From: a virus
Lineage: Duplodnaviria > Caudoviricetes
IMG/VR virus record: IMGVR_UViG_3300002895_000002
Span: 32,001 to 96,000 of that record
DNA length: 64,000 nt
Reading direction: 5' to 3' (one strand)
Shown: one piece after another, positions 5,810 through 22,802 of the stretch
Numbering within the stretch: the stretch's first letter is position 1
Layout of the letters: each line of letters begins with the position of its first letter
Made by a program: the position numbers and the translations under genes
Notes under the pieces: generated by a model
What the model saw: only the letters and a program-made list of their open reading frames with translations
Databases searched by the model: none
Told to the model about the DNA's origin: nothing

Positions 5810-5921
5810 CGTATCATAACTTGATAAATTACCGCAGTGAATGTCCGAACCAACAGCAGATAATCAAAACGGGTCCTAGACCCAAATAGCATTGAAAAAG
5901 ACATCAAATCTGGAGGCAAGA

Positions 5922-7535
5922 ATGGGCCTGTCCTGGTTCACAGATGAAGAAGTAGTTCCCAAGAAGGAAGCCAAACAAAAAGCAGCGAAAGGTGAGGCTC
6001 CCCTTCGTAAGGACGACATCAAGGAGATGAACGATGTCGAGCACATCCTTCACCGGCCGACTATCTACATCGGTTCCGTCCTTGAAGAAGACATCGAGAC
6101 TTTCGTCTACGAAAATGGGCGGGTGGTGTCCAAGCCTGTGAAGCAGATTCCGGGTCTGTGTAAGATCATTGACGAGATCATAGACAACTCCGTTGACGAG
6201 GCGATCCGGACCAAATTCCAGTATGCCACGAAGATTGATGTAACCTTCAAAGATGGAACGGTAACGATCGAAGACAATGGTCGTGGTCTTCCCATCGAGC
6301 AACGGGAAGATGGCAAGTGGACCCCGGAAGTTATCTTTACCAAAACCAAATCCGGCTCTAACTTCAACGACGACGGCCGGGCTACGATGGGAATGAACGG
6401 GGTTGGCTCATCCCTCACTAACATTTTCTCAACCATCTTCAGTGTAGATACCGCCAACGGTGTCAAGCGGTTCCGTCAGACCTACGAAAATTCCATCTCG
6501 AAGATTGGGAAGCCGAAGATTGAGCCTGGCAAGAGCAACTACACCCAGGTTTCCTTCAGACCGAACTATGATTACTTCAAAGCGTCAGCTGAGACCATAT
6601 CCAACCTGCCGTTGTTGATCGAGAAACGGATCAGGAACCTGGCGTTTGCGTTCCCTGAAATCCAGTTCCGGTTCAACGGTCAGAAGATTGCAGGCGGAAA
6701 CCTCCGTCAGTTCCTGTCACAGATCCACGAGGTGTTTGAGTACAACGAAACAGATGACGCCAGGATTGGCGTGTTCTTCTCAGAAAATGATTTCCAGCAG
6801 ATCTCGTTCGTCAACGGTCTCGAGACCCGCCGGGGTGGTGTACACATCGACCAGATAATGAACAGGATCGTTGACTACCTGCGGGACTACCTGAAGAAGA
6901 AGCACAAGATCGAGGTCAAGCCGGCGGACATCAAGAGCAAGATCTTCCTGATGTTCTCGATGCGTATGACCAACGCCCAGTTTGATGGCCAAACCAAAGA
7001 ACGACTGATGAACAGCATCACTGAGTTCAAGGACACAATCGAGGGTGTGATAACTGAGAAGTTTCTCAAGACCATCGCCAAGAACGAAGAGATCATTGCT
7101 CCCATCGTTGAGTCCTACAAGCTCCAGCAGCAGGTCAAGGAGAACCTGGAGCTCAAGAAAATGTCCAAGGTGGCCAAGAAGGTCAAGGTGGACAAGTATT
7201 TCTCAGCTACCAACGAGCAACGGTATCTTATGTTGTGCGAAGGCGACTCAGCGGCAGGTGGATTGATGGCAGCTCTGGGTAGGGACCAGTTCTCTTACTT
7301 CGCCCTCCGTGGTGTACCCCTCAACGCTCACGAAGCTAAGGTCAGTAAGATCACTGACAACGAAGAGCTCAAGAACGTGGTGCAGATACTGAATCTGGAC
7401 CTCACTAAGGACTTCCAGGACATTCCTGAAGGCAGCTTATGGTTCGAAGTTGAACTTGACGGTGAGAAAATAGTAGTAAATGAAAACGATGAAGTATATG
7501 TCAATGGTAAATGGATAAAGGTAACAGAACTATGA
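5922..7535 (+). CDS. DNA topoisomerase II large subunit, N-terminal part (T4 gp39-like)
   Basis: GHKL ATPase motifs EIIDNSVDE, EDNGRGLP, GMNGVGSSLTN; TOPRIM start CEGDSA and LRGVPLN; lacks DxDG; SD GGAGG before ATG 5922. Confidence 0.95.
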   Translation: MGLSWFTDEEVVPKKEAKQKAAKGEAPLRKDDIKEMNDVEHILHRPTIYIGSVLEEDIETFVYENGRVVSKPVKQIPGLCKIIDEIIDNSVDEAIRTKFQYATKIDVTFKDGTVTIEDNGRGLPIEQREDGKWTPEVIFTKTKSGSNFNDDGRATMGMNGVGSSLTNIFSTIFSVDTANGVKRFRQTYENSISKIGKPKIEPGKSNYTQVSFRPNYDYFKASAETISNLPLLIEKRIRNLAFAFPEIQFRFNGQKIAGGNLRQFLSQIHEVFEYNETDDARIGVFFSENDFQQISFVNGLETRRGGVHIDQIMNRIVDYLRDYLKKKHKIEVKPADIKSKIFLMFSMRMTNAQFDGQTKERLMNSITEFKDTIEGVITEKFLKTIAKNEEIIAPIVESYKLQQQVKENLELKKMSKVAKKVKVDKYFSATNEQRYLMLCEGDSAAGGLMAALGRDQFSYFALRGVPLNAHEAKVSKITDNEELKNVVQILNLDLTKDFQDIPEGSLWFEVELDGEKIVVNENDEVYVNGKWIKVTEL

Positions 7536-7723
7536 ACAACGAACGTTATCTAGTATATGACCCTGATGGCAACTTCGTAAACATACTTGACCTGACTTCT
7601 ATTCTTCATGACCATGCCGCATATAAAAAGCAATGGAAAGAAAAACAACAATGGAAAACCTCGGGTATACATTCGTTGAAGACATCGCATAAAAAACCGT
7701 CTAAATCATGGTCACATTTATAA
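7532..7723 (+). CDS. small hypothetical protein inside the topoisomerase cassette
   Basis: ATGA overlap with the gp39-like stop; 63 codons. Confidence 0.4.
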   Translation: MNNERYLVYDPDGNFVNILDLTSILHDHAAYKKQWKEKQQWKTSGIHSLKTSHKKPSKSWSHL

Positions 7724-7726
7724 ATA
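7719..7726 (+). promoter_or_regulatory. T4-type late promoter
   Basis: TATAAATA directly upstream of the HEG SD (GGAGG 7732). Confidence 0.75.
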
Positions 7727-7744
7727 GACATGGAGGAAAAAACA

Positions 7745-8827
7745 ATGCCATGTCCATTCTGTAACCAAGAAGTCATCAGTGAAAAACCATTTCGTTGCGT
7801 AAATGATGAATGCCGTTCTAAAGTGTTGAACAAACAGTCTAAAGAGTACATCAAAGTAAAAAATGGTTGGACCGATGAACAGGTAAAAGAGTATCTGTCA
7901 TCTAAGACCAAAGCCGGCCATTCCAAACGAGACCATTCGGTAAACCCCAATAGTCGAGAAGCATGGCGGCGTAGAGGACTTTCTGAAGAAGAAATAGACA
8001 CCGTCATGAAAGCCAAAGGACAGAAAGTAAGTAAAACACGAAAAGAACTCGGTCTTGGACGTGGCGACTCAAATAGCATGTCCAAGAAAAAAATGCTTGA
8101 AAGTGGAATGAGTGCTGAAGATGTGGAACTGTTTACCAGATCGCGCATTCATTCTTGTCCTGAGTACTGGGAGAAACGTGGTTACGACCGCCAGCAGGCA
8201 GAAAAACTCGCGGCTGATGCTGGCAAAACTATCACAAAAGAAAAACTTGGAGAAGAAGGTTTCAAACTAGCAAAACACCGGATGTCTAAAGTTGGTAGGA
8301 TGGAAAAACTCATCAAAGAAGTCGGTATTGAAAACGCCGAGAACGAGTTCATAAAGCGTTACATCAAGAACTCCTATATAAAGGTCGGCCGTTCATCGAA
8401 ACATGCGATGCGGCTATTTCTTCCCATTTATAAAATGTTGCGAAAAAGTGGTATGACGAAAAAAGACTTCTTTATCGGAACACATAAACGAAATGAAATG
8501 TTCATTCGCGATGGTAATGACATATTCTTCTATGACTTCGTTATCAAACCACTAAACCTTATATTCGAGTTCAAAGGAACTCACGTTCATCCTTCGCCGA
8601 ACATGTCCATTGAAGAAAGAAATCAGTGGCGGCACGCGTATTCAAAATGCTCAGCCGACGAAGTAGATAAAAAAGATAATCGCAAAAAAATAGTTGCAGA
8701 AAGTAGAGGTTATGTGTTATATTATATCTACAGCAACAACACCGACGAGCATAACATTTCTGAAATGGAAAGGATCATCAAATGCAAGATGCAAGATGTA
8801 AAAAGAAACTCATTGACCCGAAGGTAG
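7745..8827 (+). mobile_element. free-standing homing endonuclease, Vsr/DUF559-like PD-(D/E)xK catalytic domain
   Basis: N-terminal CPFC...CVNDEC zinc motif; C-terminal FFYDFVIKPLNLIFEFKGTHVH; AT-rich; splits the topoisomerase gene. Confidence 0.8.
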
Positions 8828-8925
8828 CCAAGAACCTTTATCAGAAACGGCCCAATGTTCGCCGGTCAACCAACATGTCACATGAATGCGTCGTGTTCGC
8901 TTCCGACCAAGACCTAGATGGTTGA
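8782..8925 (+). CDS. gp60-like ORF1 (47 codons, pre-bypass segment of the topoisomerase TOPRIM C-part)
   Basis: SD AAGGA 8770-8774; MQDARCKKKLIDPKVAKNLYQKRPNVRRSTNMSHECVVFASDQDLDG-stop; not in ORF track. Confidence 0.9.
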   Translation: MQDARCKKKLIDPKVAKNLYQKRPNVRRSTNMSHECVVFASDQDLDG

Positions 8926-8967
8926 CCTTCGGGTCAACTATCGATCCAACCTAAAGAGTAAATCGGC
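8917..8967 (+). other. programmed ribosomal bypass (hopping) element, 45-nt coding gap
   Basis: GAT GGT TGA CC TTCG GG TCAAC TATC...AAAGAG TAAATC GGC; 11-bp hairpin with C(UUCG)G loop; stops at 8923 and 8959; the hop restores DxDGxHI. Confidence 0.88.
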
Positions 8968-9366
8968 ATTCATATTCGTGGCTTATTATTGGCATTCTTC
9001 CACCGTTTCGCTCCGAGTCTCATCAAGCAGGGCCGTATCTGCTACCTGCAGACTCCCATCGTAACTGGCAAGAAGAAGGGCAAGATCGTCAAAGTGTTCT
9101 TCGATCTGTCAGAGTACCGTGCCTTCGCTCAGACAGAAGAAGCCAAGCAGTACCAGTTCGACTATCGCAAGGGTTTGGGAAGCTGGGACATTGACAGCGG
9201 CGAACTCCAGGAGGTCATCAAGCTCGTTGGAATGGAGAACATGCTGAAACCCTTCGAATGGTCCGATGAAGCTCCCAAGAAGATTGATGACTGGCTTGGT
9301 GGGAAGAACTCGGATGTTCGGAAGACCTACCTGAACGGTCGCAGCTTCAGCATCGACGGGATATGA
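8968..9366 (+). CDS. gp60-like ORF2 (post-bypass segment of the topoisomerase)
   Basis: IHIRGLLLAFFHRFAPSLIKQGRICYLQTPIV...YRKGLGSW; has no start codon before the essential HIR residues. Confidence 0.9.
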   Translation: MHIRGLLLAFFHRFAPSLIKQGRICYLQTPIVTGKKKGKIVKVFFDLSEYRAFAQTEEAKQYQFDYRKGLGSWDIDSGELQEVIKLVGMENMLKPFEWSDEAPKKIDDWLGGKNSDVRKTYLNGRSFSIDGI

Positions 9367-9371
9367 AATTC

Positions 9372-9400
9372 TTGACATTGATACCTATACCTGTTATTAT
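9372..9400 (+). promoter_or_regulatory. sigma70-type promoter
   Basis: TTGACA-17-TATTAT with TG. Confidence 0.75.
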
Positions 9401-9424
9401 GTAGAAAATGTCAAGGGAGGCTAA

Positions 9425-10753
9425 ATGAAGATTGCAGATTTCTTTGCAAATGATTACACCGATTTTGCCACCTATGATAACTACCGCAACCTCGGTAGCT
9501 ACATAGATGGACTGAAACCGTCCATGCGGAAGATCGTCCACGTCTTTGACAAGAACAACATCACCACCCCAACCAAAGTAGAACAGCTCCAGTCCAAGAT
9601 CGCTGAGCAGACAGAATACCTGCATGGCTCCCATACGTTGGCGGGTGTTATCGTTAACATGTCAACGAGCTACCCTGGCACCAACAACATGCCGCTCCTT
9701 CTCCCTAAGGGTAACTTCGGTACGCGCTGCGTTCAACGTGCGGCGGCTGGCAGGTACATCTACGCATCAAAGGCACCGGCATTCAGTAAACTGTTCAGGG
9801 CGGAAGACAGACCCATCCTCATCGAGCAGGAGTTTGAGGGGACCATCATTGAGCCGAGATTCTTTCTCCCTGTCCTTCCCTTGCTCCTAGTAAACGGTTC
9901 TGAGGGCATTGGAAACGGCTACAGCCAGAAGATCCTCCCTCGTGATCCCAAGCTCCTAGCCAAACTAGTCTTTGAATACCTGACCAAAGGCAAGCTCCCC
10001 AAGAACATCCCACCTTACTTCGAGGGCTTTCAGGGAACAGTCTCTCCCGTTGAAGACAACCCGGGCTCGTGGGTTATTACCGGATGTCTCGAGAAGACAG
10101 ATCGGGCAACTCTCAGAATAACCGAAGTCCCGGTTGGGTATGATCTCGAGGGTTACACCAAGAAGCTCGACGACCTTGAAGAGAAGAAAGTAATCAAAGG
10201 CTACACCGACCGCTCCGACGGTAAGAACAAGATCTGTTTCGACGTCAGGGTTGATCTCGAGTTCATGCGGAAGCCGTTGGAGTGGCAGTTAGCTCAACTC
10301 AAACTCACCCGCAAGTTTAGTGAGACTTACACCTGTCTTGATGAGAATAACGGAATCCGTGAGTTTGAATCTGAGGTTGAAATCCTTAAGGCCTACTGTG
10401 ACTTCCGTGTCAAACAGTATGATGTCCGGAAAGCCTATATTGAAGGAAAGCTCAAGCAGGATATTGGTGTACTGAAGGAAAAGGCCCGCTTCGTTGAACT
10501 GGTAGTAACCGAGAAGATAAAGATCTTCAGGATGACTAAGGTCTATATCGAAGAGCAGTGTGAGAAACATAAGCTCTCGAAGAAGGATGGCTCGTATAAT
10601 TACCTGACCGGCCTTCCCATCCATTCCCTCACCGAAGAGAAGATAGATGAACTCAAGGCTGAGGTTGTGAAGAAGGAAGAGGAGCTTGACTGCATCAGTA
10701 AAACCCCAGCTCAAACCATGTGGATCAACGATATCAAAGAGGCAGTAAAATAA
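9425..10753 (+). CDS. DNA topoisomerase II medium subunit (T4 gp52-like)
   Basis: DGLKPSMRK, YLHG, GNFGTR...AAGRYIY (catalytic Tyr), LVNGSEGIGNG. Confidence 0.95.
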   Translation: MKIADFFANDYTDFATYDNYRNLGSYIDGLKPSMRKIVHVFDKNNITTPTKVEQLQSKIAEQTEYLHGSHTLAGVIVNMSTSYPGTNNMPLLLPKGNFGTRCVQRAAAGRYIYASKAPAFSKLFRAEDRPILIEQEFEGTIIEPRFFLPVLPLLLVNGSEGIGNGYSQKILPRDPKLLAKLVFEYLTKGKLPKNIPPYFEGFQGTVSPVEDNPGSWVITGCLEKTDRATLRITEVPVGYDLEGYTKKLDDLEEKKVIKGYTDRSDGKNKICFDVRVDLEFMRKPLEWQLAQLKLTRKFSETYTCLDENNGIREFESEVEILKAYCDFRVKQYDVRKAYIEGKLKQDIGVLKEKARFVELVVTEKIKIFRMTKVYIEEQCEKHKLSKKDGSYNYLTGLPIHSLTEEKIDELKAEVVKKEEELDCISKTPAQTMWINDIKEAVK

Positions 10754-11265: not shown

Positions 11266-11450
11266 AAATGACAGGCATCGACAAAGCCGGGAATGAAGTG
11301 ACTCTTGAGCTTTCGGACACTGCTCAGCTGAAAGTGAGCATCGAGTACGTCAGGCCATTTGGTGGTGACCTCAACGAGTTTGCAGACAAGCTCGGAGTAC
11401 AGATCACTGAGGTCGATTATCAGACCACCACGGAAAGGATGGTGCACTAA
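11262..11450 (+). CDS. hypothetical protein
   Basis: ATGA coupling, phage-like codon usage. Confidence 0.65.
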   Translation: MKMTGIDKAGNEVTLELSDTAQLKVSIEYVRPFGGDLNEFADKLGVQITEVDYQTTTERMVH

Positions 11451-11746
11451 TAGCAAAACTAACGGCAGCACAGGCCCGGGAAGAAAGCCTGAAGAACCTC
11501 AAAGGTCCGGCAATTCAGGCATATATCGACCACATTGATAACCGCATTGAAGAGGCCATCAACCAGGGAAAGACCATCATATATCATCCGTTTGCTAAGC
11601 TCGACAGCATTCTCAGACGGCCAACCATCGAAGAACGGGAGGCAACACTCAAGCATTTCACTGATGAAGGGTGCACTGTGAAGTATTATCCGAACCCTGA
11701 CCCAGGACACCCTGCAAGCAGCGACTATCACACCATCGAGTGGTGA
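11450..11746 (+). CDS. hypothetical protein with apparent ATA start (98 aa, absent from ORF track)
   Basis: TAATA overlap; open frame AKLTAAQAREESLKNLKG...DYHTIEW; no ATG/GTG/TTG back to the upstream stop at 11408. Confidence 0.6.
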   Translation: MAKLTAAQAREESLKNLKGPAIQAYIDHIDNRIEEAINQGKTIIYHPFAKLDSILRRPTIEEREATLKHFTDEGCTVKYYPNPDPGHPASSDYHTIEW

Positions 11747-11807
11747 AGACATGACACCAAACCCACTGAAATTCTATCGTCCAGTAACCAACACAGGAGA
11801 CAAAACA

Positions 11808-12065
11808 ATGGCAGCTACCTCAGGTCCGTCCGAATCCTTGAACCTCACCCCCACCCGCGAAGAGCAGTACGAGCGTATGATCCTGAACGTCCAGAACTCC
11901 CATGGATGCTCCCGCAGTAAGGCCCGTCGCATCTTGGAATCCATTGCTCGCAAAGAGACCAAGAAGTTCATCAAGGCCGGCAAGAAGCGTCAGGCAGCAC
12001 TTGCGGCGGCTGGCAAGCTGGTTACCCCCGAAGATCTTTTGGGACAGGAGGAAGCTGATGCCTAA
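11808..12065 (+). CDS. hypothetical protein
   Basis: SD GGAG; 85 aa. Confidence 0.65.
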   Translation: MAATSGPSESLNLTPTREEQYERMILNVQNSHGCSRSKARRILESIARKETKKFIKAGKKRQAALAAAGKLVTPEDLLGQEEADA

Positions 12066-12288
12066 CAGACCGGCAGAATGGCCAGTCATCCAGGCGTTTG
12101 AAGTAGTGAACCAACTGGCGGAGGACGAACTTATGGTTACTCCATGTACTAAGTCCTCCTGCTGGTACAACTCAGGGAAAGACCAGGAATGCACCCGCAA
12201 ACTGGATAACATCACGCCGAACTCATACGACTGTCTCGAGTATCGGGATGCCTTTATCACCCCACCAAAAGATCAACCCTACCGATAA
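12058..12288 (+). CDS. small Cys-containing hypothetical protein
   Basis: overlaps the preceding gene; CxxxxC...C...C. Confidence 0.6.
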   Translation: MPNRPAEWPVIQAFEVVNQLAEDELMVTPCTKSSCWYNSGKDQECTRKLDNITPNSYDCLEYRDAFITPPKDQPYR

Positions 12289-12294
12289 TTTCTG

Positions 12295-12323
12295 TTGACA
12301 ATCGTTCTCCCTTCTGTTATTAT
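12295..12323 (+). promoter_or_regulatory. sigma70-type promoter
   Basis: TTGACA-17-TATTAT with TG. Confidence 0.75.
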
Positions 12324-12353
12324 GGAAACATAAAAACATGAAGGGAGAACGAT

Positions 12354-13102
12354 ATGATGTTCCAACCTACCCAGTACCACAAGTTTTTTCGCGGCGGTGT
12401 CCTGCCAATCGAATTCTTCAACATGACCACTGAACAGATCACGGGTATTCAATCCGAACACGAGTACGACGTGCAGATCAACAAGCAAGTTCGTGAGAAT
12501 GCTGCGGCTGCTCGTGCTGCTGCTATCAAGAAGACCAAAGAGCTCTTCGAGTCTTTCGGCATTCGCACTACCGAGTACAAAACTCCTCGCGGTGGTAAGG
12601 CTGGTCATTACCCCACCAAGCAGATGGAAAAGTGTACGAGATCGCTACCGAGCCGTTCATCTTCCGCGAGCCGTATCAGTCATCTACCATGGAGTGTAAG
12701 CTCCCTGACGGTTCCACCTTCCGGAACGCCTGCTCCCCGTGCACCCTCGTGGAACTCCACACCAATGCCCATCGGTTCTGGAACAACCGTCAGACCGCCA
12801 AGAAGCGGGAAGGTGAAGCATTCGCCGGCTATCTGAAGTACGCTATCGAGAACGGCATCCAGGTTTCCGTAGAGCAAGCGTCAGATCCCCAGGTGTTCAT
12901 GCGGACCGTGGACGAGATCGCCTCGGAGAAGTGGTTCAAGGAGACCTACCCGAAAGGCTCCGAGGTTTCCATCTCGTGCTGCCCTGAGTGTTCCACTCAC
13001 ATTGTCGGCGAAAACCGGTGCTTATGTGGAAACGTCCGGGTAGAACTCAATGTCGAAGGTTCTGTACTCAACGGGTTCTATCTTTACGACCAACGGCACT
13101 AG
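12354..13102 (+). pseudogene. hypothetical protein broken by one frameshift
   Basis: ORF 12354 (...PTKQMEK) continues as VYEIATEP... in the 12632 frame at the A-run 12628-12631. Confidence 0.6.
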
Positions 13103-13111
13103 GAGAAAACC

Positions 13112-13264
13112 ATGAATGAAATCCCATGTAAGATGCACTGCGTGTTCGCTATAGACGGTTGTTGTACATGCAAGCCGTTCAACATAGCACCCAACAGTAA
13201 GGCATGCCCTTCATACTTGACGGTTGAACATATGCACATCTATCGGCCGCTTGAGAATCAGTGA
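13112..13264 (+). CDS. small Cys-rich protein (50 aa, absent from ORF track)
   Basis: SD GGAG; MNEIPCKMHCVFAIDGCCTCKPFNIAPNSKACPSY. Confidence 0.55.
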   Translation: MNEIPCKMHCVFAIDGCCTCKPFNIAPNSKACPSYLTVEHMHIYRPLENQ

Positions 13265-13274
13265 AAAAAAACTG

Positions 13275-13303
13275 TTGACAAGTTCCTCCTCATTTGTTAT
13301 AGT
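13275..13303 (+). promoter_or_regulatory. sigma70-type promoter
   Basis: TTGACA-17-TATAGT with TG. Confidence 0.75.
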
Positions 13304-13332
13304 AAAACTACAATAAATGAGGAGGTAACACA

Positions 13333-13593
13333 ATGACCACAACTGTTGAAGAACTCATCGCATATCTCAAAACCCTTCCCCAAAAAGCTGAAGTTTCCTG
13401 TGCCGTTCATGTAGACGGTTACGACGGTGGATGGACTTCTTCAGAAGAACTTGAGCTTCCTATCCGTCGTGAAGATGGTACCTTCGAACAGTGTTCCGAT
13501 AACATCGACTTCACCAGCCTTGTCGGCAACCAGTTCGTAAAGGAAACCGACCCCCGCTTCGGTAAGTCTTACCTCTTCATAGGAAGGAGATAA
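13333..13593 (+). CDS. hypothetical protein
   Basis: SD GGAGG. Confidence 0.75.
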   Translation: MTTTVEELIAYLKTLPQKAEVSCAVHVDGYDGGWTSSEELELPIRREDGTFEQCSDNIDFTSLVGNQFVKETDPRFGKSYLFIGRR

Positions 13594-13595
13594 TC

Positions 13596-13793
13596 ATGAA
13601 AGAAGAAATCCTCAAGAAAATTGCCGAAGTTGAACTCGAGAAGAAGCAAGCATATGATTGTGCATATTACAACGGTAGCATGCACCCCGCTTACGAAAGC
13701 AATCAGGCAATGTATGATTACTGTTTGAAAAAAACTCAGAGAGCTTCTTTAGAAGGACATCATGAGCGAGACCAAGTCCATAATGACAGATGA
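13596..13793 (+). CDS. hypothetical protein (3' end probably altered by an indel)
   Basis: SD GGAG; removing one A from the A7 run 13728-13734 gives the ending LKKLRELL-stop. Confidence 0.55.
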   Translation: MKEEILKKIAEVELEKKQAYDCAYYNGSMHPAYESNQAMYDYCLKKTQRASLEGHHERDQVHNDR

Positions 13794-14071
13794 GCTTACC
13801 GGCCGGTGATATGGCTTTCAAACTCCATATCGCCGTAGAATGGCTCAGTGGGCATGACACTAGATGTGATGTCTGTAATGGTACCGGGAAGATAGAGGAC
13901 ATGTGGGGAGATGATAAGCCATGTCATTATTGTCACGGGTTTAGCCGGATACCAGACCCGCTTCCTCGGGTGCCTAAGGACTTACACGACCACATGATCG
14001 CCGCATGGGTTGAGTTCTGGAATGCACGTAGACCGAAGGAAGAGTTTCTCGACGGAGGGATGAACATATGA
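13790..14071 (+). CDS. DnaJ-type CxxCxGxG zinc-finger protein
   Basis: CDVCNGTG and CHYCHGF. Confidence 0.6.
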   Translation: MSLPAGDMAFKLHIAVEWLSGHDTRCDVCNGTGKIEDMWGDDKPCHYCHGFSRIPDPLPRVPKDLHDHMIAAWVEFWNARRPKEEFLDGGMNI

Positions 14072-14268
14072 TACTCAAGCAAGGTGCCACCTATCGCTAT
14101 ACGCAGAACGGTGTTGTTCGTTCGGTGATCATCGAAGAGATCGTGGTGTACATGTCTGAAGGTGTCATCCATGCGACTGTGCATTACAGTGAACCAGCAT
14201 TCAATGCACATATCACTGAGTCGGCTGAAGCATTTCTCAGCAAAACACCGACCATCATCTACTACTAG
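14068..14268 (+). CDS. hypothetical protein
   Basis: ATGA coupling, SD GGAGG. Confidence 0.65.
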   Translation: MILKQGATYRYTQNGVVRSVIIEEIVVYMSEGVIHATVHYSEPAFNAHITESAEAFLSKTPTIIYY

Positions 14269-14276
14269 GAGGAGCC

Positions 14277-14459
14277 ATGCAAGTTTTTCTATGTGTTCTC
14301 AACAAGCAGACCAATGCCAGGATGTCCAAGGTGCACTCCAATACTCCCAGGGTTGCAGAGGGGATGAAGGAGCACGTCGCCAAGCTGCAGAAGATGTTCG
14401 GTGGGGAGTATGTGGTTGCTCGGTTCATTCAAACCAAAAAAGGGCTGAAGCGCTTATAA
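14277..14459 (+). CDS. hypothetical protein
   Basis: SD GGAGG. Confidence 0.65.
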   Translation: MQVFLCVLNKQTNARMSKVHSNTPRVAEGMKEHVAKLQKMFGGEYVVARFIQTKKGLKRL

Positions 14460-14465
14460 TTTCAG

Positions 14466-14494
14466 TTGACCTTTTCTTTTTGTGGTGTTATCAT
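14466..14494 (+). promoter_or_regulatory. sigma70-type promoter
   Basis: TTGACC-17-TATCAT with TG. Confidence 0.65.
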
Positions 14495-14532
14495 GTTTTT
14501 AAGATGGACACAACACAAAGCGGAGGTAGACA

Positions 14533-14967
14533 ATGAGCCTCATTAGCAACGAGCGTGCAAAGGTCATCGAGAACTACACTGAGGAACTCCGTTGTCGTCA
14601 GGAAGAGAAGAAAAAGCCGCTGGTGCTCCCAGAGCGGCTCGAGCAGGTCATCCAAGAGATGCACCGTGGGGTGACGTACGGTCCTGCCGGGCTCGTGCCT
14701 GTCGCTGTCTGGGATGAACGGTTCGTCCTCATCAAGAGGCCCGGGCGGTTCGGGAGGCGTGGCTGCGGTTCCCGTTCGTACATCCCGACAGCATACACCC
14801 TGCATGACCTCCATGAGTACGTCGTGGGTTCCATGTGTGGTATCACTCTCTTCTACAAGACCACCGTCTGGGAAGCTCCTGAAGGTACCCGTCTCAACAA
14901 GGTGCTAACATCAGCAGCAGTACTCGCGATAAACGCCCGGGTTGCGAATGAGACACAAAATCTTTAG
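14533..14967 (+). CDS. hypothetical protein
   Basis: SD GGAGG, 144 aa. Confidence 0.7.
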   Translation: MSLISNERAKVIENYTEELRCRQEEKKKPLVLPERLEQVIQEMHRGVTYGPAGLVPVAVWDERFVLIKRPGRFGRRGCGSRSYIPTAYTLHDLHEYVVGSMCGITLFYKTTVWEAPEGTRLNKVLTSAAVLAINARVANETQNL

Positions 14968-14975
14968 GCTGAAAT

Positions 14976-15004
14976 TTGACAGAACCCCTCGTTCATGTTA
15001 TGTT
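14976..15004 (+). promoter_or_regulatory. sigma70-type promoter
   Basis: TTGACA-17-TATGTT with TG. Confidence 0.65.
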
Positions 15005-15046
15005 GTATTCATAACAAATGAACCAACCAACAAAGGAGAATAACGA

Positions 15047-15742
15047 ATGGCAAAAGGTAAAGAAACAACTGCAGGATTCAGCTTCTCTGAGGTCGAGATC
15101 AACGTTCTCAAAAACTTCGCTTCCGTCAACCCCAGCATGGTGATCTCGCCGGAAGGTCTCGGGGTCATCAATACCGCCAAGTCGGTGATCGCCAACTATC
15201 CCTTCGCCAAACCGTATGCCTTCGAAGAGTTCGGTGTCTACGAGGTTCCCGAGCTCCTGTCCGTCCTGGGCGCCTTGTCCAATCCGGTCATCGAAGCGAA
15301 CGACAAGTACCTGCTCATCAAGGACGGCGAGTCCAAGACCCGCTACTTCACTACCGCCAAGGACCTGCTCCCGAAAGTGCCGGCTGTCGAGAACAAATTT
15401 TCCCAGGTCAAGTGCGAACTGGACTTCACCCTCCCTGCTGAGAAGCTCGCTGCACTGTTCAAGATGGCGGCAATCATCAAGGCAGAGTGGCTCTTCCTCG
15501 AGAGCGACGGCAAGAAGATCCGCCTCACTGTCGGTAAGGAACTGGACACCTCCAGCAATACCTTCGACGTAACGATCACCGCCGACATCGCCGCAAACGA
15601 TCTCGAGAAGCCAGTCAAGGTTCCCCTCTCGGACCTCAAAGTTCTCCCTGGTGGGTATGATGTGAAGATTTCCACCGCCGGCATTTCCAGGTGGACCGCC
15701 GACGTTGGGGCTACGTATTACATCGGGGTCAAGACTCTGTAA
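15047..15742 (+). CDS. sliding clamp (T4 gp45-like)
   Basis: INVLKNFASVNPSMVI, FGVYEVPELLSVL, LKVLPGGYDVKIS; 231 aa; upstream of the clamp loader. Confidence 0.88.
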   Translation: MAKGKETTAGFSFSEVEINVLKNFASVNPSMVISPEGLGVINTAKSVIANYPFAKPYAFEEFGVYEVPELLSVLGALSNPVIEANDKYLLIKDGESKTRYFTTAKDLLPKVPAVENKFSQVKCELDFTLPAEKLAALFKMAAIIKAEWLFLESDGKKIRLTVGKELDTSSNTFDVTITADIAANDLEKPVKVPLSDLKVLPGGYDVKISTAGISRWTADVGATYYIGVKTL

Positions 15743-15761
15743 ACAGATCAACACTAAACGG

Positions 15762-15798
15762 AAAAGACGCGGATTGTTATTAGATCCGTGTCTTTTTT
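15762..15798 (+). terminator. rho-independent terminator
   Basis: AAAAGACGCGGAT/ATCCGTGTCTTTT followed by T-run. Confidence 0.75.
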
Positions 15799-15799
15799 A

Positions 15800-15828
15800 T
15801 TGACATCATTTTAGAGTCATGTTATCAT
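15800..15828 (+). promoter_or_regulatory. sigma70-type promoter
   Basis: TTGACA-17-TATCAT with TG. Confidence 0.7.
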
Positions 15829-15874
15829 TTTTTAACGATACAGAATGCAACCCAACCGACTAGGAAGACATATC

Positions 15875-16090
15875 ATGGAAAAGTTTCACGTTCTTTCAGC
15901 CGCCTGCCTCTTTGTCCTGCGGTATGTTGTAAGCACTCTTTCAATGATTCAGTACAACAGCAAGTCAGGTGAACTTGAACGGCTCTTAGATGGTATGAAA
16001 GGATACCGCAAGGTTTACAAGACTGGCGGCAAGGATCTTCTGCTTGCTCTGTTGTCCATCGCGTGGCTCGTCGTTTACTACTTCGGATAA
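15875..16090 (+). CDS. small membrane protein
   Basis: two hydrophobic segments. Confidence 0.55.
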   Translation: MEKFHVLSAACLFVLRYVVSTLSMIQYNSKSGELERLLDGMKGYRKVYKTGGKDLLLALLSIAWLVVYYFG

Positions 16091-16101
16091 GGAGAACACT
16101 C

Positions 16102-16329
16102 ATGATCGAACCAGGAACACTCATCGCCGTACTTTTTCTCACCGCCGTCCTCTTCATTCTCATCTCTGCTTTGCTTGCTTTCAAACTTCGCCGGGAGAAG
16201 GACAACCACCGGAACACCCAGTGTCATTTGGATGACTTCATGAGTTCATCCGCACAGCTCATCATCGATAACCATCAGCTTCGTCAACAGATCGCCGGTG
16301 TCGTGGACGATGAAGAGACACACTCATGA
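16102..16329 (+). CDS. small membrane-anchored protein
   Basis: SD AAGGAG; N-terminal TM segment. Confidence 0.65.
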   Translation: MIEPGTLIAVLFLTAVLFILISALLAFKLRREKDNHRNTQCHLDDFMSSSAQLIIDNHQLRQQIAGVVDDEETHS

Positions 16330-16517
16330 TGTTCATCTGCAATCATGCCAGGGAGTTTGGTGTATGCTCTGACTGTTCCCATGATAAACCACACGAGAAA
16401 CAACCCATGAAGATGCTCGGGGATCGCTTCTCCTGCCAAGTTTCTGGACCATGTCAGTTGGATGGAACCGTCGTTGGCTGCCATTGCAAACCTATCGGCA
16501 GTCGTGCCAAACAATAA
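16326..16517 (+). CDS. small Cys/His-rich protein
   Basis: CNH...CSDCSHDKPH...C...C...CHC. Confidence 0.6.
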   Translation: MMFICNHAREFGVCSDCSHDKPHEKQPMKMLGDRFSCQVSGPCQLDGTVVGCHCKPIGSRAKQ

Positions 16518-16529
16518 AGAGATCACAAT

Positions 16530-17006
16530 ATGCTTGAAAACATCAAGATTCTTTTCACCACCTTCCTCATCTTCGGCATTCTCGTAGTCTCGCTCTACTT
16601 CGCGCCGGCATATCCGATTGCCAAGTTTGCTCTTGGGGTTATCAACACGATACTCATCTTCTGGGCGATCGTTCTTGTTATCGGTGCAGCGTTCCTTTGC
16701 TCAAACAGTGCTCGTTCGGATATTTCTAGCAAAATTGTGAAGGATGCTGCCTTTCGTGCGGACACCACAACGAAAGTACGCAACATTCTTTCCAAGACCA
16801 CATATATCTACGTCTGGAACTTCTGCATCGTCCTCTGCTACATTGCAGCATGTGCCTACGCCACAGCCAACAGTTTCTTCTTCACTGCATCCTTGATGCT
16901 CGTGTTGTCTATCGTAACATTCATCTTCCCTAGGGCAGTCGTTTCATTTGCGGAGTACTGTAATGATGTGATCATCAGGTATGACGAACGCGCAAGCTGG
17001 CGGTAG
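16530..17006 (+). CDS. multi-pass membrane protein
   Basis: about four hydrophobic segments. Confidence 0.7.
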   Translation: MLENIKILFTTFLIFGILVVSLYFAPAYPIAKFALGVINTILIFWAIVLVIGAAFLCSNSARSDISSKIVKDAAFRADTTTKVRNILSKTTYIYVWNFCIVLCYIAACAYATANSFFFTASLMLVLSIVTFIFPRAVVSFAEYCNDVIIRYDERASWR

Positions 17007-17010
17007 TAAT

Positions 17011-17039
17011 TTGACAGAACAATCATCTTCAAGTAATAT
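17011..17039 (+). promoter_or_regulatory. sigma70-type promoter
   Basis: TTGACA-17-TAATAT. Confidence 0.65.
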
Positions 17040-17067
17040 AAAAACAACAACAAACGAAGGAGAAAAT

Positions 17068-18009
17068 ATGAAACATATTGGTACGAGTAGTTTATGGGTA
17101 GAAAAATACCGCCCAAGATGCGTCGCAGACTACCTGGCAACACCTAAGGTCAAATCAATTCTCGACCACATCATTCAGACCAACGACATTCCTCATCTCC
17201 TGCTCTACTCCAAGAGCCCAGGCACAGGTAAGACCACGTTCGCAAACGTGGTGGCTAAAGAGCTCGAATGTGACCTGCTCTACAAGAACGGGTCAATCGA
17301 CACTAGCATCGACAGCATCCGGTATGACGTGCAGCAGTTCACAATGACCAGCTCACTGATGGGTGGGAAGAAGCTCGTGGTGCTCGACGAGGCAGAGCGG
17401 CTCTCACAGAATGCCCAGGAAGCACTGAAAGTCCTGATGGAACAGTGTGAAGGAAACGCACGGTTCATCATCTGTACCAACAACATGCAACGGGTGGTGG
17501 CTCCGGTTATCAGTCGTTGTCAGATCGTTGAGTTTGACCATACTGAGGCGGACAAGCAAGCACTGATGATTCAGTATTTCAAGCGGGTCCAGTTCATCCT
17601 CTCCAACGAAGGAGTTGAGTACGACAAAGCAGTGCTCGCAGAGCTCATCAAGAAGCTCTACCCAGACCTTCGCAAGACTATCGGTCAGCTCCAGCAATTC
17701 TCCAAAACCCACAAGAGCATCACCCAAGAAGTGTTAGGTGATCTCGACGATAGTCAGACCCTGGATCTCGTTGCGAAGATGAAGGCAAAGAAGTTCGAAC
17801 CGATCCGAGCAGCCTGCAGTAACATTGACCCAAGTGGATTTTTCTCAACGTTCTATGCTGAGATATCAAATCTTCTTCAGCCAGAGTGCATTCCCGATAC
17901 AATTTTGATTTTAGCCAGGTACGCGAACACGCATTGCCTAACTACAGATACCGAAATAAATCTCGCGGCATGCATCGTTGAGCTCATGTCAACCATCAAG
18001 TGGAAATAA
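17068..18009 (+). CDS. clamp loader large subunit (T4 gp44/RFC-like AAA+)
   Basis: LWVEKYRP, Walker A SPGTGKTT, Walker B LDEAE, SRC motif; SD AAGGAG. Confidence 0.95.
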   Translation: MKHIGTSSLWVEKYRPRCVADYLATPKVKSILDHIIQTNDIPHLLLYSKSPGTGKTTFANVVAKELECDLLYKNGSIDTSIDSIRYDVQQFTMTSSLMGGKKLVVLDEAERLSQNAQEALKVLMEQCEGNARFIICTNNMQRVVAPVISRCQIVEFDHTEADKQALMIQYFKRVQFILSNEGVEYDKAVLAELIKKLYPDLRKTIGQLQQFSKTHKSITQEVLGDLDDSQTLDLVAKMKAKKFEPIRAACSNIDPSGFFSTFYAEISNLLQPECIPDTILILARYANTHCLTTDTEINLAACIVELMSTIKWK

Positions 18010-18910
18010 TTACAGAAGATTCTATCCGGAGAGACCAACCAGGTGTTGAAGAAAGTCTCCGGATAGAATCTTTCTTTTTCAAACCAGGGCTGATATTGAT
18101 TGGAGGGACAACAGTTCCTTTGTTGGCTAGGAGCTGTTTTGGTGATAGGAGATGCTCATTACAGAAATCCCAAAGATCTGCCGTTTTAAATTCCTTACCA
18201 TCAGGGCTGGTTAGTATATAGAGTTTATTTGTTATCCTTATGTTTTTGCCTTGGGTCTTTTCCGGCAATGGGCTGAATTGATTTGGGGCATCATATAGTT
18301 CGGACAACAACCATCCTTCGGTGTTCATGAGACGTTGGACTGAATTTGGTTTGTGTAGGCCCAATGGAATTTCGATTTTTGGGACAACAGATCCAAGATG
18401 AGCCAAGAGATGCTTAGGAGAAAGGGTTAGGTGAGTACACCACTGAATCAGGTCATTGATTAGATATTCATTGCCATTTGGGTCTGTGAGATTGTAGAAT
18501 TTTTTATTGTGTGGTGTCGATCCTTTTATGAATGGTTTCATTCTTTCTCTGATTTGTGGTTGGTTTGTTATTTTCCCTTGATAGTTTGGGTTATTTTCTC
18601 CGGATCGAAACCCAGAACCGCCCGGAATTTGATTATAAGTGTCTGTTCTAGATATAAACCAGTCATCAACAATCATTTTTTCTAGTTCATAGGCGTGTTC
18701 ATCCGATAAAGCTTCGTGAAGAATTATTCGTTCGAAGTTTTCTCGGCCATAAAGTTTGATTGCATCAGAAATTATGGTTCCGGACCCAAGGTATGGATCA
18801 CTTTTGGTATGAGAAGAATGTTTTCCAACGTAGATTTTACCGTTGATCTTATTGCGGATGAGATAAACGAAATGATAGACTGGGTCTTTTTTACCACGAC
18901 GGGAACGCAT
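17996..18910 (-). mobile_element. GIY-YIG homing endonuclease (Seg-like)
   Basis: FVYLIRNKINGKIYVGKH; tandem DNA-binding repeats (LTDPNGNEY / LTSPDGKEF); SD GAGGTG before ATG 18910. Confidence 0.9.
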
Positions 18911-18922
18911 GACATTCACCTC

Positions 18923-19012
18923 AATAAATAGATGTGACGGGGACAGTGGAGTTTCACCTCCTCCATTGGTTGTCAGTGCCACCTGCAACCTTACCTGTTC
19001 CTTTTATTTATC
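18923..19012. ncRNA. structured HEG-leader element, copy 1
   Basis: two hairpins bounded by opposed ATAAATA boxes; 72 nt (18924-18995) identical to copy 3. Confidence 0.7.
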
Positions 19013-19046
19013 ATTTCCCAAAAAATAAAGAAAATAGAGTCAACTA

Positions 19047-19226
19047 ATGAATAAAGAAATGAAGATCAGATGTCAGGTTTGTGGGGAATGGATTCCTGTT
19101 CGTTATATTCACGAGCATGTTGATTGGCAACACCAGGTCAATACTGAATACCATAGTTACATCATGAGTTTAACAATCGAACAGATATTAGAAAATTCCA
19201 AGAATCAATTCCAGATTAGAATTTGA
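19047..19226 (+). CDS. 59-aa C2H2-like zinc-finger protein, copy 1 (absent from ORF track)
   Basis: MNKEMKIRCQVCGEWIPVRYIHEHVDWQH...; paralog at 32502 differs mostly at synonymous sites. Confidence 0.75.
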   Translation: MNKEMKIRCQVCGEWIPVRYIHEHVDWQHQVNTEYHSYIMSLTIEQILENSKNQFQIRI

Positions 19227-19251
19227 CAAGATTTGAGTTCGGTGTTACTGT
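19223..19251 (+). promoter_or_regulatory. sigma70-type promoter overlapping the zinc-finger stop
   Basis: TTGACA (contains the TGA stop)-17-TACTGT with TG. Confidence 0.65.
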
Positions 19252-19270
19252 ATAGAAAAGGAGATGATCC

Positions 19271-19654
19271 ATGGCTAAGCTATTCGATTACATTGACGCT
19301 CTGACCACCAAGAAGCCAATCAAAGAGGACCCGGATGTCTTCCAGAAAGACTTCCAACCGTTTATCATCAATCGAGTGTTTTCGTGTGATAATAACCTGG
19401 TTCTCATCGCCAATCTCTGTAACCAGGGTGGAATGACCAAGGAGATGATCCGGGATCTGTATTATTACGGAGTCCCGAAAGGCAAACGGTTTATCAAGTA
19501 TTCCGCAAAGAAAGAAAAGTCAGACGGACTGATCAAATACCTGATGGACTACTTCGGAGTCAACCAACATACAGCGAAGCAATATGCTGTGCTTCTGGAT
19601 AAGAAAGAGATTGACGAAATTGTCGAGTTTTACGAGAAAAGAGGGAAGGGTTAG
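19271..19654 (+). CDS. clamp loader small subunit (T4 gp62-like)
   Basis: LFDYIDAL, FQPFIINRVFS, YYYGVPKGKRFIKY, YFGVN...AKQY. Confidence 0.85.
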   Translation: MAKLFDYIDALTTKKPIKEDPDVFQKDFQPFIINRVFSCDNNLVLIANLCNQGGMTKEMIRDLYYYGVPKGKRFIKYSAKKEKSDGLIKYLMDYFGVNQHTAKQYAVLLDKKEIDEIVEFYEKRGKG

Positions 19655-19743
19655 TCCAGACAATCGTCAAACCCAAAGTCCGTTCATACGCATGGATTGG
19701 ATGTCCGATTCATAGAAATATTAACCAAAGAAAGGAATGTCAC

Positions 19744-20208
19744 GTGTCACAACCGCAACTCGGATTCACAAGAACAAAAGATGTACAAGCACCAAACCGG
19801 GGAACCCCCAAATCCGCTGGTGTTGATTTCTATGTCCCGGATACCTTCAACGACGGACACCCACTCACTATTCGCCCCGGGGAGCATGTCAAGATTGAGA
19901 TGGGCATCCATGTCCGAATCCCGTCTGGCTTTGCTCTCATTCTGTCCCTCGACAAGAGCGGGATTGGTGCGAAGGGTATCAAGGTCACTGGTGGGGTCAT
20001 TGACGAGGACTACCAGGGTGAGATCATGCTGTTCTTCTACAACATCGGTCAAGAGCCGCAACTCATCAAACCCGGCCAGAAGATTGCTCAAGGCCTGCTC
20101 ATTCCTGTCCTGTACGCAGATGTGGTTGAGTACGAGTACAAAACTGATCTGTATGCCGACCATAAATCCGAGCGTGGTGAAGGCGGCTTCGGCTCGACAG
20201 GAGTGTAA
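19744..20208 (+). CDS. dut: trimeric dUTPase
   Basis: SAGVDF, KSG, GVIDEDYQGE, KIAQ, RGEGGFGSTG. Confidence 0.95.
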   Translation: MSQPQLGFTRTKDVQAPNRGTPKSAGVDFYVPDTFNDGHPLTIRPGEHVKIEMGIHVRIPSGFALILSLDKSGIGAKGIKVTGGVIDEDYQGEIMLFFYNIGQEPQLIKPGQKIAQGLLIPVLYADVVEYEYKTDLYADHKSERGEGGFGSTGV

Positions 20209-20210
20209 CC

Positions 20211-20675
20211 ATGCACGTCGAAGGAATCTACAAGGGTTATGTGGTATTCACCAATGACCGGGAGGGACTAGTGAACCCCCGCTCTATCTACTCATACGAG
20301 AAACCCGGCGCAGTCAAGACCGGCGACATCCGGGTTATCGAAGGGTGTATCTGGTATGTCAGCACCATCGACGAGATCACCGAGGAACGCCGGATGCCGC
20401 TTGAAATGTTCTTGGGACCGAAGCACGTCCGTGACCAGGTGTGGTGGCGCCGGGTTCCTGAAAAGAGCACCAAAGCCATCGAGGACATCCAGCACCGCCT
20501 GGGTGAAATCGAAAACTGGTTGAACAGTCCCGCTCCGTGGTGCACCGTGGATGATGTGAAGGCTCTCATAGCCGATGCCATTACCGCCAACCCGAGCATC
20601 ACCGCTGCTGAACTGGATGAAACCATCCGGCATCATCTGGATACTTACAAGCACAAGGAGCGGACAAATGGCTAA
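20211..20675 (+). CDS. hypothetical protein
   Basis: 154 aa, phage codon usage. Confidence 0.7.
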   Translation: MHVEGIYKGYVVFTNDREGLVNPRSIYSYEKPGAVKTGDIRVIEGCIWYVSTIDEITEERRMPLEMFLGPKHVRDQVWWRRVPEKSTKAIEDIQHRLGEIENWLNSPAPWCTVDDVKALIADAITANPSITAAELDETIRHHLDTYKHKERTNG

Positions 20676-21432
20676 GGTGATCGGTATCGCCGGCAAGATC
20701 GGCAGCGGCAAGGGCTACTTCGCCTCCAAGCTCATCGCTGACCTGAAGAACGACGGGAAGAGCGTGGCCTACACTGCATACGCCGATCCACTCAAGGACG
20801 TGCTCCTCAGGAACTTCGGCCTGACCAAGACTGGCTTCAAGGGGTACTCTCCACTCGACTACCAAGGTGACGGTTACACCAACACCAAGGTCAGGTTACG
20901 GAAGGGACTCTGGCATTGGCACAAGAAGATCGTCAGCTGGGACTTATTGTCATTCCATGATCAACTCAACGAGAGCCGATCGTTTGATGCTCTCTTTGAG
21001 GAACTCTTCGACACCTACGGCCCGAAACTGGTAGGGCTGATGCGGAAGATCGGTGATGCCGAGGCGAACTATGATGACACGTTCCGCCAGATCATCCAGA
21101 TGGTCGGCACGGAGTTCGGCCGTGGCATCAACGAGAACTTCTGGATCCTCGCCACCTTCGCCAAGATCCATGCAGCACTCGAGGGTGGCTTCGATGCCGC
21201 CGTGATCGACGATGTACGCTTCCCGAACGAGAAGACCGAGCTGGAACTCTTCTGTCAGGAGGCGGACTACATCTGCGAGGTGTGGGGTGTTACTGCATCG
21301 GATAAAGTGAGAGCTCAGCGGAGGGGCATGACCGTAAATGCCATGACTGAGTTTGATCAACACGGCTCCGAGCGGTATATTGACGATATCATCGCCACGC
21401 TACCGCCGGAGTTTATTGTGGTGAACGACTAA
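20668..21432 (+). CDS. deoxynucleoside monophosphate kinase (T4 gp1-like)
   Basis: IGIAGKIGSGKG, ADPLK, RQIIQMVGTEFGR, VIDDVRFPNE. Confidence 0.9.
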   Translation: MAKVIGIAGKIGSGKGYFASKLIADLKNDGKSVAYTAYADPLKDVLLRNFGLTKTGFKGYSPLDYQGDGYTNTKVRLRKGLWHWHKKIVSWDLLSFHDQLNESRSFDALFEELFDTYGPKLVGLMRKIGDAEANYDDTFRQIIQMVGTEFGRGINENFWILATFAKIHAALEGGFDAAVIDDVRFPNEKTELELFCQEADYICEVWGVTASDKVRAQRRGMTVNAMTEFDQHGSERYIDDIIATLPPEFIVVND

Positions 21433-21439
21433 ATTGCTC

Positions 21440-22195
21440 TTATTTCACTTTGAATATAGTAGCAGCATGGATCGAAGCAGGTCCATGCTGCTTCAAAATC
21501 CTGCTTCCTTCTGCAATCGTTGATCCAGACGTTAGGAAGTCATCCAGAATGAGAACATGCTTGCCTTGAACTTTCTTGGTCATTTCTGGATCTGCCTTCA
21601 GAAATCCACGAAGGTGTCTCCTCTCATTACCAAGCACCCTCTTCATTTCGAGAGTTTGGTTCCCTTCCTTTTTCAGGCGGTCTATTGTTTTTGTCAGATT
21701 CTTATGTACCTTCTCATTATCGAGATCAGGGCTGATGGTGACATTATCGATGTGGGCCTTATCAAGTGAGCCAGGGTGATAGGAAACACCAGGCATCCGG
21801 GTCATGAGGTGATGGGCAAAACGGTGAACAAGGTCCGACGATGACTTTGGCGTAACAATCATGTCGAACTTTTTGCCCTTGAGGTCTGTGGCGAGAAGGT
21901 GTTGAGCAGTCCTCGAAAGGAAATGTTCCCGGTCCTCATGCTCGAATGTGATATCCGGGTGTTTCCCTTTGAGAGCTTTCATGATATCGCCTGACTGCTC
22001 AATGTCATGCCCAACATGGTAGCTCGAGGAAACAGGAACCTTATCCGTCTGGGTGCTGTGAGTGGAGAACGGTGTTTTCTTCTTTCCCTTCCCGAATTTG
22101 GTTGATATGCCCTCTTGGCTACTGTAGTCGAATTTTAGTTTCCCGTCGACAGTAATGCCCTCGTTGATCTCTATGAATTTTTTGAATGATATCAT
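21440..22195 (-). CDS. phosphoribosyltransferase-fold protein with capsid-targeting-like N-terminus
   Basis: VLILDDFLTSGSTI PRPP loop; starts MISFKKFIEINE; SD GGAGG; late-type box AATAAATA on the minus strand at 22219-22226. Confidence 0.8.
   Translation of the reverse strand: MISFKKFIEINEGITVDGKLKFDYSSQEGISTKFGKGKKKTPFSTHSTQTDKVPVSSSYHVGHDIEQSGDIMKALKGKHPDITFEHEDREHFLSRTAQHLLATDLKGKKFDMIVTPKSSSDLVHRFAHHLMTRMPGVSYHPGSLDKAHIDNVTISPDLDNEKVHKNLTKTIDRLKKEGNQTLEMKRVLGNERRHLRGFLKADPEMTKKVQGKHVLILDDFLTSGSTIAEGSRILKQHGPASIHAATIFKVK
21461..21492. terminator. hairpin between convergent genes
   Basis: AGCAGCATGGATC/GGTCCATGCTGCT. Confidence 0.6.
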
Positions 22196-22230
22196 GTGTC
22201 CCTCCAAAATTATATCCTTATTTATTTCTA

Positions 22231-22259
22231 TTGACATTCTCCTCCTGTTCTGTTATCCT
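22231..22259 (+). promoter_or_regulatory. sigma70-type promoter
   Basis: TTGACA-17-TATCCT with TG. Confidence 0.65.
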
Positions 22260-22287
22260 GTTTATAACATAAAAGGAGGTTCTTATT

Positions 22288-22770: not shown

Positions 22771-22773
22771 TTT

Positions 22774-22802
22774 TTGACAATCACCCCTTCCTGTTATACA
22801 AT
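22774..22802 (+). promoter_or_regulatory. sigma70-type promoter
   Basis: TTGACA-17-TACAAT. Confidence 0.7.

Follow-up and report, generated by a model that had tools for sequence, protein, structure and literature searches.

A phage DNA stretch of 64,000 nucleotides, here called the window (bases 32001-96000 of a 213-kb IMG/VR phage record), probably encodes a programmed translational bypass of the T4 gene 60 type, carried by a homing-endonuclease cassette that splits the gene for the large subunit of topoisomerase II. From the sequence evidence presented below we assign this reading a probability of about 0.8. Bypassing in gene 60 is the extreme textbook example of recoding, and from natural variants of the gene one learns which bypass rules are general. 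The variant studied here has GGU as take-off and GGC as landing codon, which suggests that the two codons need only share a tRNA and that a cognate triplet within the take-off hairpin can be tolerated. Both points were already drawn in 2022 from MGS12 and its relatives. The feature is genuine, but it is typical of its family and not new, the locus being letter for letter MGS12 of clade 11 (Manning and Atkins, bioRxiv 10.1101/2022.08.31.505936). The DNA of ORF2 including the whole gap, ORF1 and the endonuclease protein are those of MGS12 in Table S2 and Files S1, S2 and S5 of that preprint. Our additions are modest. They comprise two further natural copies of the cassette in Logan assemblies (L002 and L052, the latter with a 44-nt out-of-frame gap), uninterrupted partner genes (L045 and L046) that fix the junction and the 3′ end of the cassette, comparisons indicating that take-off and landing codon both belong to the cassette, an explanation from hairpin structure for the sequence of the hidden triplet, and a possible rule for the direction of wobble pairing.

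Gene layout and signals at the split topoisomerase gene

The region 5892-10753 encodes a T4-type topoisomerase II in pieces. The positions given in the original prediction all agree with the sequence. Its features, in window positions, are as follows.

5892..7535, + strand: ORF1, gp39-like N-terminal part of the topoisomerase II large subunit (Pfam HATPase_c, DNA_gyraseB and Toprim)
7730..8827, + strand: homing-endonuclease gene of the cassette, overlapping the start of ORF2 (match to phrog_22677, function unknown)
8782..8922, + strand: N-terminal extension of ORF2, 47 aa, ending in ...NVRRS...VVFASDQDLDG; Y..NVRRS and the D.D.DG end are shared with residues 1-46 of T4 gp60
8917..8942, + strand: take-off stem-loop, 11 bp closed by C(UUCG)G, from folding and covariation
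8920..8922, + strand: predicted take-off codon GGT (Gly), last sense codon of the extension, conserved in L002 and L052
8923..8925, + strand: TGA stop directly after GGT 8920, in the A site at the predicted take-off
8932..8934, + strand: hidden cognate GGT at the top of the 3′ arm, paired with A8925, C8926 and C8927
8956..8958, + strand: mini Shine-Dalgarno GAG, 6 nt before the landing codon, a spacing shared by T4, S16, KARL-1, Pm5461, L002 and L052
8959..8961, + strand: TAA, second in-frame stop within the gap, read from the sequence
8965..8967, + strand: predicted landing codon GGC, the sole GGN yielding DLDG-IHIRGLLL
8965..8994, + strand: cassette-borne 3′ end, landing codon plus about 8 synonymously recoded codons, from L052 and L002 versus L045
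8968..9366, + strand: C-terminal part of ORF2, gp60-like, TOPRIM_C (Pfam PF16898; phrog_543 and phrog_7229)
8980..8982, + strand: downstream in-frame GGC, possible overshoot site
9425..10753, + strand: gp52-like topoisomerase II subunit A (Pfam DNA_topoisoIV, E = 2.7e-66)

The insertion lies at the invariant Asp45/Gly46 of the Toprim D.D.DG motif and divides the large subunit between ORF1 and ORF2. The break comes after DQDLDG, and the uninterrupted genes are colinear across this point. ORF1, which shares about 40% identity with large subunits of phage topoisomerase II (the closest cultured ones being from Campylobacter and T4-like phages), holds the start of the Toprim domain. Its colinearity with the uninterrupted genes of L045 and L046 is lost after ...DFQD, and its C-terminal extension is encoded by the cassette. 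A 70-aa open frame is present at 7511-7723, between the end of ORF1 and the endonuclease gene. A Pfam search with the endonuclease gave no match; in File S5 of the 2022 preprint it is listed as MGS12_VSR_endo, a Vsr-like protein (bioRxiv 10.1101/2022.08.31.505936).

The 47-aa extension of ORF2 provides a replacement for the Toprim segment and may also act as a nascent-peptide signal. Its residues Y20, N25-V26-R27-R28-S29 and S41 align with T4 KYKLQNNVRRS, the T4 signal comprising Y16, V22, R23/R24 and T/S40, and the T4 residues Q19 and Y33 are without counterpart. The exception at Y33 was already remarked upon for MGS12 (bioRxiv 10.1101/2022.08.31.505936).

In the take-off hairpin, nucleotides 8917-8927 pair with 8932-8942 around a TTCG loop at 8928-8931, and the 28-nt hairpin folds at -17.7 kcal/mol. 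Across six cassettes 97% of the cells are paired and 6 of the 11 pairs show compensatory double changes, a covariation score that was reached by none of 500 shuffles. The 66 nt before take-off and the 66 nt after landing folded no better than shuffles (z = +0.5 to +1.0), and for this reason we claim no 5′ stem-loop or 3′ barrier. A take-off by tRNA-Asp at GAT 8917 was considered and rejected, as no GAY precedes the resumed frame and the sole GAT of the gap (8943) leads to TAA 8952.

By these signals, bypassing would proceed as follows. The ribosome would translate the 47-aa extension and pause with peptidyl-tRNA-Gly on GGU 8920 while UGA occupies the A site. Next, the tRNA would unpair and remain in the P site while the 11-bp UUCG hairpin forms, the nucleotides of which, including GGU 8932, would pass unscanned by analogy with the T4 experiments. 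GAG 8956 would pair with the anti-Shine-Dalgarno sequence, the tRNA would re-pair to GGC 8965, and decoding would resume at AUU 8968. With host tRNA-Gly(GCC), the third-position pairing would be G.U (wobble) at take-off and G-C at landing. The original prediction had assigned the selection of the landing site to GAG, which agrees with the T4 literature and with the 6-nt spacing conserved across the cassettes; by analogy, such a guiding role is likely here too.

Predicted product junction, sibling cassettes and possible alternatives to a hop

A search for relatives with the C-terminal third of ORF1 yielded two uninterrupted full-length genes, encoding P0004 (652 aa, locus L045) and P0003 (651 aa, locus L046). 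Both proteins read VVFASDQDLDGIHIRGLLL. They contain VVFASDQDLDG-IHIRGLLL, which is exactly what a hop between 8920 and 8965 would produce, with the Gly encoded once. GGC 8965 had been put forward as the only landing site that restores DxDGxHI, and it is indeed the only GGN that gives DLDG-IHIRGLLL as in P0003 and P0004. This comparison directly supports GGC 8965 as the true resumption point. Landing there opens a 132-codon frame starting with IHIRGLLLAFF and stopping at 9364-9366. The predicted hop covers 45 nt and is in frame, and the predicted joined product has 179 aa with the junction DLDG-IHIR. The in-frame GGC at 8980 is also present as originally described, and landing on it would delete IHIRG. 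It is not conserved, the corresponding codon being GGA in L002, L052 and L046 and GGT in L045.

In the window and in the copies L002 and L052 alike, GGT is followed by TGA and the hairpin tip, a second GGT lies at +12, and GAG precedes GGC by the 6-nt spacer. L002 is 93% identical to the window over 8700-9366. For this pair dN/dS was 0.23 in the N-terminal extension and 0.21 in the 3′ part, showing that purifying selection acts on both coding halves. The gaps of L002 and the window differ at 3 of 42 positions, and one of the differences turns a G.U pair of the stem into G-C. We had considered these few differences (against a dS of about 0.4-0.5) as a sign of selective constraint on the gap. 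This was dropped, because the adjacent remnant of the dead endonuclease is also 97% identical and recent shared ancestry explains the similarity of the gaps equally well. The endonuclease of L002 is decayed (L002:1857-2310, Logan SRR24236065 contig), an 81-aa C-terminal fragment being left, followed by a frame break. As the bypass signals and both halves of ORF2 are intact in L002 without the endonuclease, the predicted hop would outlive the endonuclease.

A full HMMER search with the 47-aa N-terminal extension recovered L052. The endonuclease of this copy is intact, with 61% amino acid identity to that of the window, and the extension is 71% identical. In L052 (1152-1201) the gap is one base shorter, which makes the predicted hop 44 nt long and out of frame, and the take-off codon has its third base bulged from the stem. 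The gene-caller annotation of L052 shows a 147-aa frame beginning at a TTG inside the hairpin. The sequence GACCAAGACCTNGATGGTTGACCTTCGGGTC is identical in the window (8904-8935), L002 (2424-2455) and L052 (1139-1170) except for one synonymous site, at an endonuclease identity of 61%. This synonymous conservation upstream of take-off may reflect RNA structure or a site of immunity to the endonuclease.

Comparison with uninterrupted L045 also delimits the cassette, the pair of L052 and L045 marking its boundaries on both sides. ORF1 of L002 is 96% identical to L045. L052 differs from L045 by 10 synonymous changes at offsets 5-24 past the landing codon and is 96% identical further on. Similarly, L002 is 63% identical to L045 at 8965..8994 and 95% identical over the next 66 nt. 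The recoded block that follows the landing codon in L052 indicates that the cassette carries the landing codon as well as the take-off codon. By these comparisons the GGU/GGC pair apparently moves as a unit and is no accident of the codon present in the recipient gene. Further downstream L002 is a mosaic: the block 8995-9060 is 95-96% like L045, as is ORF1; the block corresponding to window 9061-9270 (L002:2587-2796) resembles the window (95%) far more than L045 (65%); and the last 96 nt are again nearer to L045. Such a pattern suggests patchy co-conversion, or else recombination, near the cassette.

Other searches gave no further copies. Megablast of 7500-9500 against GenBank phages found no match, and a search for related loci with the C-terminal part of ORF2 found none in IMG/VR. 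A two-sequence alignment search of JGI metagenome contigs was likewise negative. Scanning IMG/VR for the hairpin GGNTGACCTTCGGGTCANC gave 42 matches, all of them unrelated terminator-like hairpins without topoisomerase context, and a scan for T4-type hairpins gave only Proteus phage Pm5461. A word-based protein search with the N-terminal extension recovered only the proteins of the window and L002. With tblastn of a cassette N-terminal extension against GenBank phages, all genera obtained were those of the 2022 preprint and no new clade appeared.

Explanations that dispense with a hop were also considered. The 47-aa peptide could simply end at UGA and the C-terminal part could be started on its own, for example at TTG 8989, from which a 125-aa frame is open, or at AUU 8968 behind GAG, which could act as a weak ribosome-binding site; gene callers do call such frames in L002 and L052. 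A start at 8989, however, loses the conserved IHIRGLL segment, and a Gly codon cognate to the take-off codon is conserved before AUU 8968 in all three copies. In addition, all of the T4 bypass signals are conserved and covary, and T4, having the same layout, makes one polypeptide. We consider separate expression of the two parts very unlikely. Alternatively, the 45 nt might be removed by RNA splicing or editing, or be neutralised by read-through of both stops at the cost of a 15-aa insertion, and the in-frame gap of the window and L002 would allow this. An Rfam search of 8700-9100 revealed no intron or other RNA family. Read-through is excluded by the 44-nt out-of-frame gap of L052, which also shows that the frame relation is irrelevant, as hopping predicts. 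Moreover, this genome uses TGA and TAA as ordinary stops (TGA ends 48 of the 165 long ORFs of the phage), none of the 19 phage tRNAs is a suppressor, and the 15 additional residues would split the invariant Toprim motif. Removal or read-through of the gap is thus extremely improbable.

Codon pairing and the triplet hidden in the hairpin

Among the 19 tRNAs encoded by the phage, the only one for Gly has the anticodon UCC, as in T4, and a tRNA-Gly(GCC) is absent. The tRNA-Gly(UCC) gene is located outside the window at G000:C1:13215-13296, in a tRNA cluster extending over 11354-27248. According to ARAGORN it is an unusual molecule of 82 nt, in which the acceptor stem has 8 bp, the D stem has 3 bp and the extra arm is long. 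Among the Gly codons of the phage, GGT (40%) and GGC (20%) are the most frequent. Most likely the acting tRNA is the tRNA-Gly(GCC) of the host. By standard wobble rules, the anticodon GCC has GGC as its Watson-Crick partner and GGU as its wobble partner. It follows that wobble would occur at take-off, not at re-pairing, and that the hidden GGU would be the weaker match. The original prediction of wobble re-pairing by a different tRNA than in T4 is therefore sustained in part: a single GGY-reading tRNA fits the comparative evidence and the T4 literature, but the wobble belongs to the take-off, and the landing would be Watson-Crick.

The third base might, however, matter less than this model implies, because in T4 mutants tRNA-Gly(UCC) landed on GGU 54-56 and GGC 94-96 (Wills, Parsawar and Atkins, bioRxiv 10.1101/2024.12.09.627546). 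In the extreme case it would be irrelevant for bypassing: two G-C pairs and the spacing of GAG would suffice, any tRNA-Gly including the UCC species of the phage could serve, and the GGU/GGC pair would merely record neutral history. Consistent with this, the phage possesses just that UCC species, the authors of the T4 study judge the third base to be probably unpaired in the P site (bioRxiv 10.1101/2024.12.09.627546), and considerable latitude in P-site pairing was noted earlier (bioRxiv 10.1101/2022.08.31.505936). Against it, in all natural cassettes the two codons are either identical or readable by one tRNA, GGT and GGC are unchanged in the three diverged copies while a synonymous site next to them (CTA/CTT/CTC) varies, and all five non-identical natural pairs share one direction. 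On balance we think it unlikely that the third base plays no part.

The direction common to these five pairs is from wobble to Watson-Crick for the expected anticodons, and none runs in reverse. Three groups (S16, Stupor/Abraxas/MG1 and MGS12/L002/L052) pass from GGU to GGC, the Proteus phages from GGG to GGA, and KARL-1/Aci03 from GAU to GAC. A rule that natural cassettes leave a wobble-paired codon and land on a Watson-Crick-paired one can be suggested only tentatively from these sequences and is doubtful, as the sample is about five events that are not fully independent, the Asp case hinges on queuosine, the preference of which is ambiguous, and identical wobble pairs (GGU/GGU) exist. We found no statement of such a rule in the 2022 preprint (bioRxiv 10.1101/2022.08.31.505936). 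If it were true, weak pairing would favour take-off and strong pairing landing, and the hidden GGU would be a poorer landing site on two counts.

Between take-off and landing the only GGN triplets are GGG 8931 and GGT 8932, both within the hairpin. GGT 8932 lies 12 nt past the take-off codon in frame, and landing on it would, as originally stated, end at TAA 8959; 8 codons would be read before this stop. In the original prediction it had been viewed as an exact-match decoy masked by the hairpin. [quoted passage not shown] In accordance with this, the 3′ parts of the gaps were previously found to be without premature landing triplets (bioRxiv 10.1101/2022.08.31.505936). The position of the triplet in the window is the same as that of GGC in the hairpins of T4, S16 and Pm5461, and the base at its third position is paired with the one that ends the stop codon (UAG with GGC, UGA with GGU). 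The exact match of GGU is consequently a by-product of the CC-UUCG-GG hairpin tip and the use of UGA. Concealment in the hairpin would fit the comparative evidence and the T4 literature, but the triplet, which for GCC would be the weaker match, is no separate feature; it is a general, structurally determined trait of the family. In T4, mass spectrometry showed that the wild type leaves a cognate GGG at gap nucleotides 9-11 unscanned and that this triplet comes into use solely after mutation of the normal landing codon (Wills, Parsawar and Atkins, bioRxiv 10.1101/2024.12.09.627546).

Comparison with known bypass cassettes

The sequence had been proposed as a new natural test of bypass rules, to be pursued with reporters and mass spectrometry. 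Neither is new: the same sequence with its GGU/GGC pair is contained in the 2022 preprint (bioRxiv 10.1101/2022.08.31.505936), and such tests of landing choice have already been done for T4 (bioRxiv 10.1101/2024.12.09.627546). The former describes dozens of gene 60 homologues with a conserved hairpin and mini Shine-Dalgarno sequence, GGU/GGC wobble pairs in Stupor, Abraxas, S16, MGS1 and MGS12, a UGA stop in three metagenomic sequences including MGS12, and a Vsr-type endonuclease for clade 11 (bioRxiv 10.1101/2022.08.31.505936). There MGS12, which appears in File S3 as clx11_nMG13, is traced to an IMG/VR record from enrichment cultures of the Chocolate Pots hot spring (bioRxiv 10.1101/2022.08.31.505936). 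In contrast to the present analysis, the preprint neither singles out the in-frame GGU of the hairpin arm nor presents an uninterrupted partner or close sibling for MGS12.

We tabulated the cassettes of T4, S16, Stupor, KARL-1 and Pm5461 (GenBank records and an IMG/VR copy) together with those of the window and L002. The bypass layout of the window is also present in the records of these five phages. Only for T4 do we note an annotated joined CDS with a 50-nt bypass region; in the records of L049 (S16, HQ331142.1), L050 and L051, Stupor and KARL-1 being among the three, the halves of gene 60 appear as separate CDS without a join or bypass feature.

T4 gene 60 with its mobA cassette is interrupted at the same site within the Toprim D.D.DG motif, and its architecture matches that of the window element by element. 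The differences concern the individual elements. As the original prediction held and the tabulated cassettes confirmed, T4 uses GGA for both take-off and landing, whereas the window has GGU and GGC. The stop is UAG in T4 and UGA in the window, and the hop is 50 nt and out of frame in T4 compared to the predicted 45 nt in frame. The hidden triplet is GGG at +11 in T4 and GGU at +12 in the window, and the endonuclease is the HNH protein MobA in T4 and Vsr-like in the window. Moreover, a 5′ stem-loop and a 3′ barrier contribute in T4, whereas no significant one folds in the window.

The gene 60 cassette of S16 (Gelderlandvirus) resembles the window in having GGU as take-off and GGC as landing codon, an in-frame hop (48 nt), GAG 6 nt before the landing codon and an in-frame cognate GGY at +12 in the 3′ arm of the hairpin. 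It differs from the window by its UAG stop, a hidden GGC, an HNH endonuclease and a T4-like N-terminal extension.
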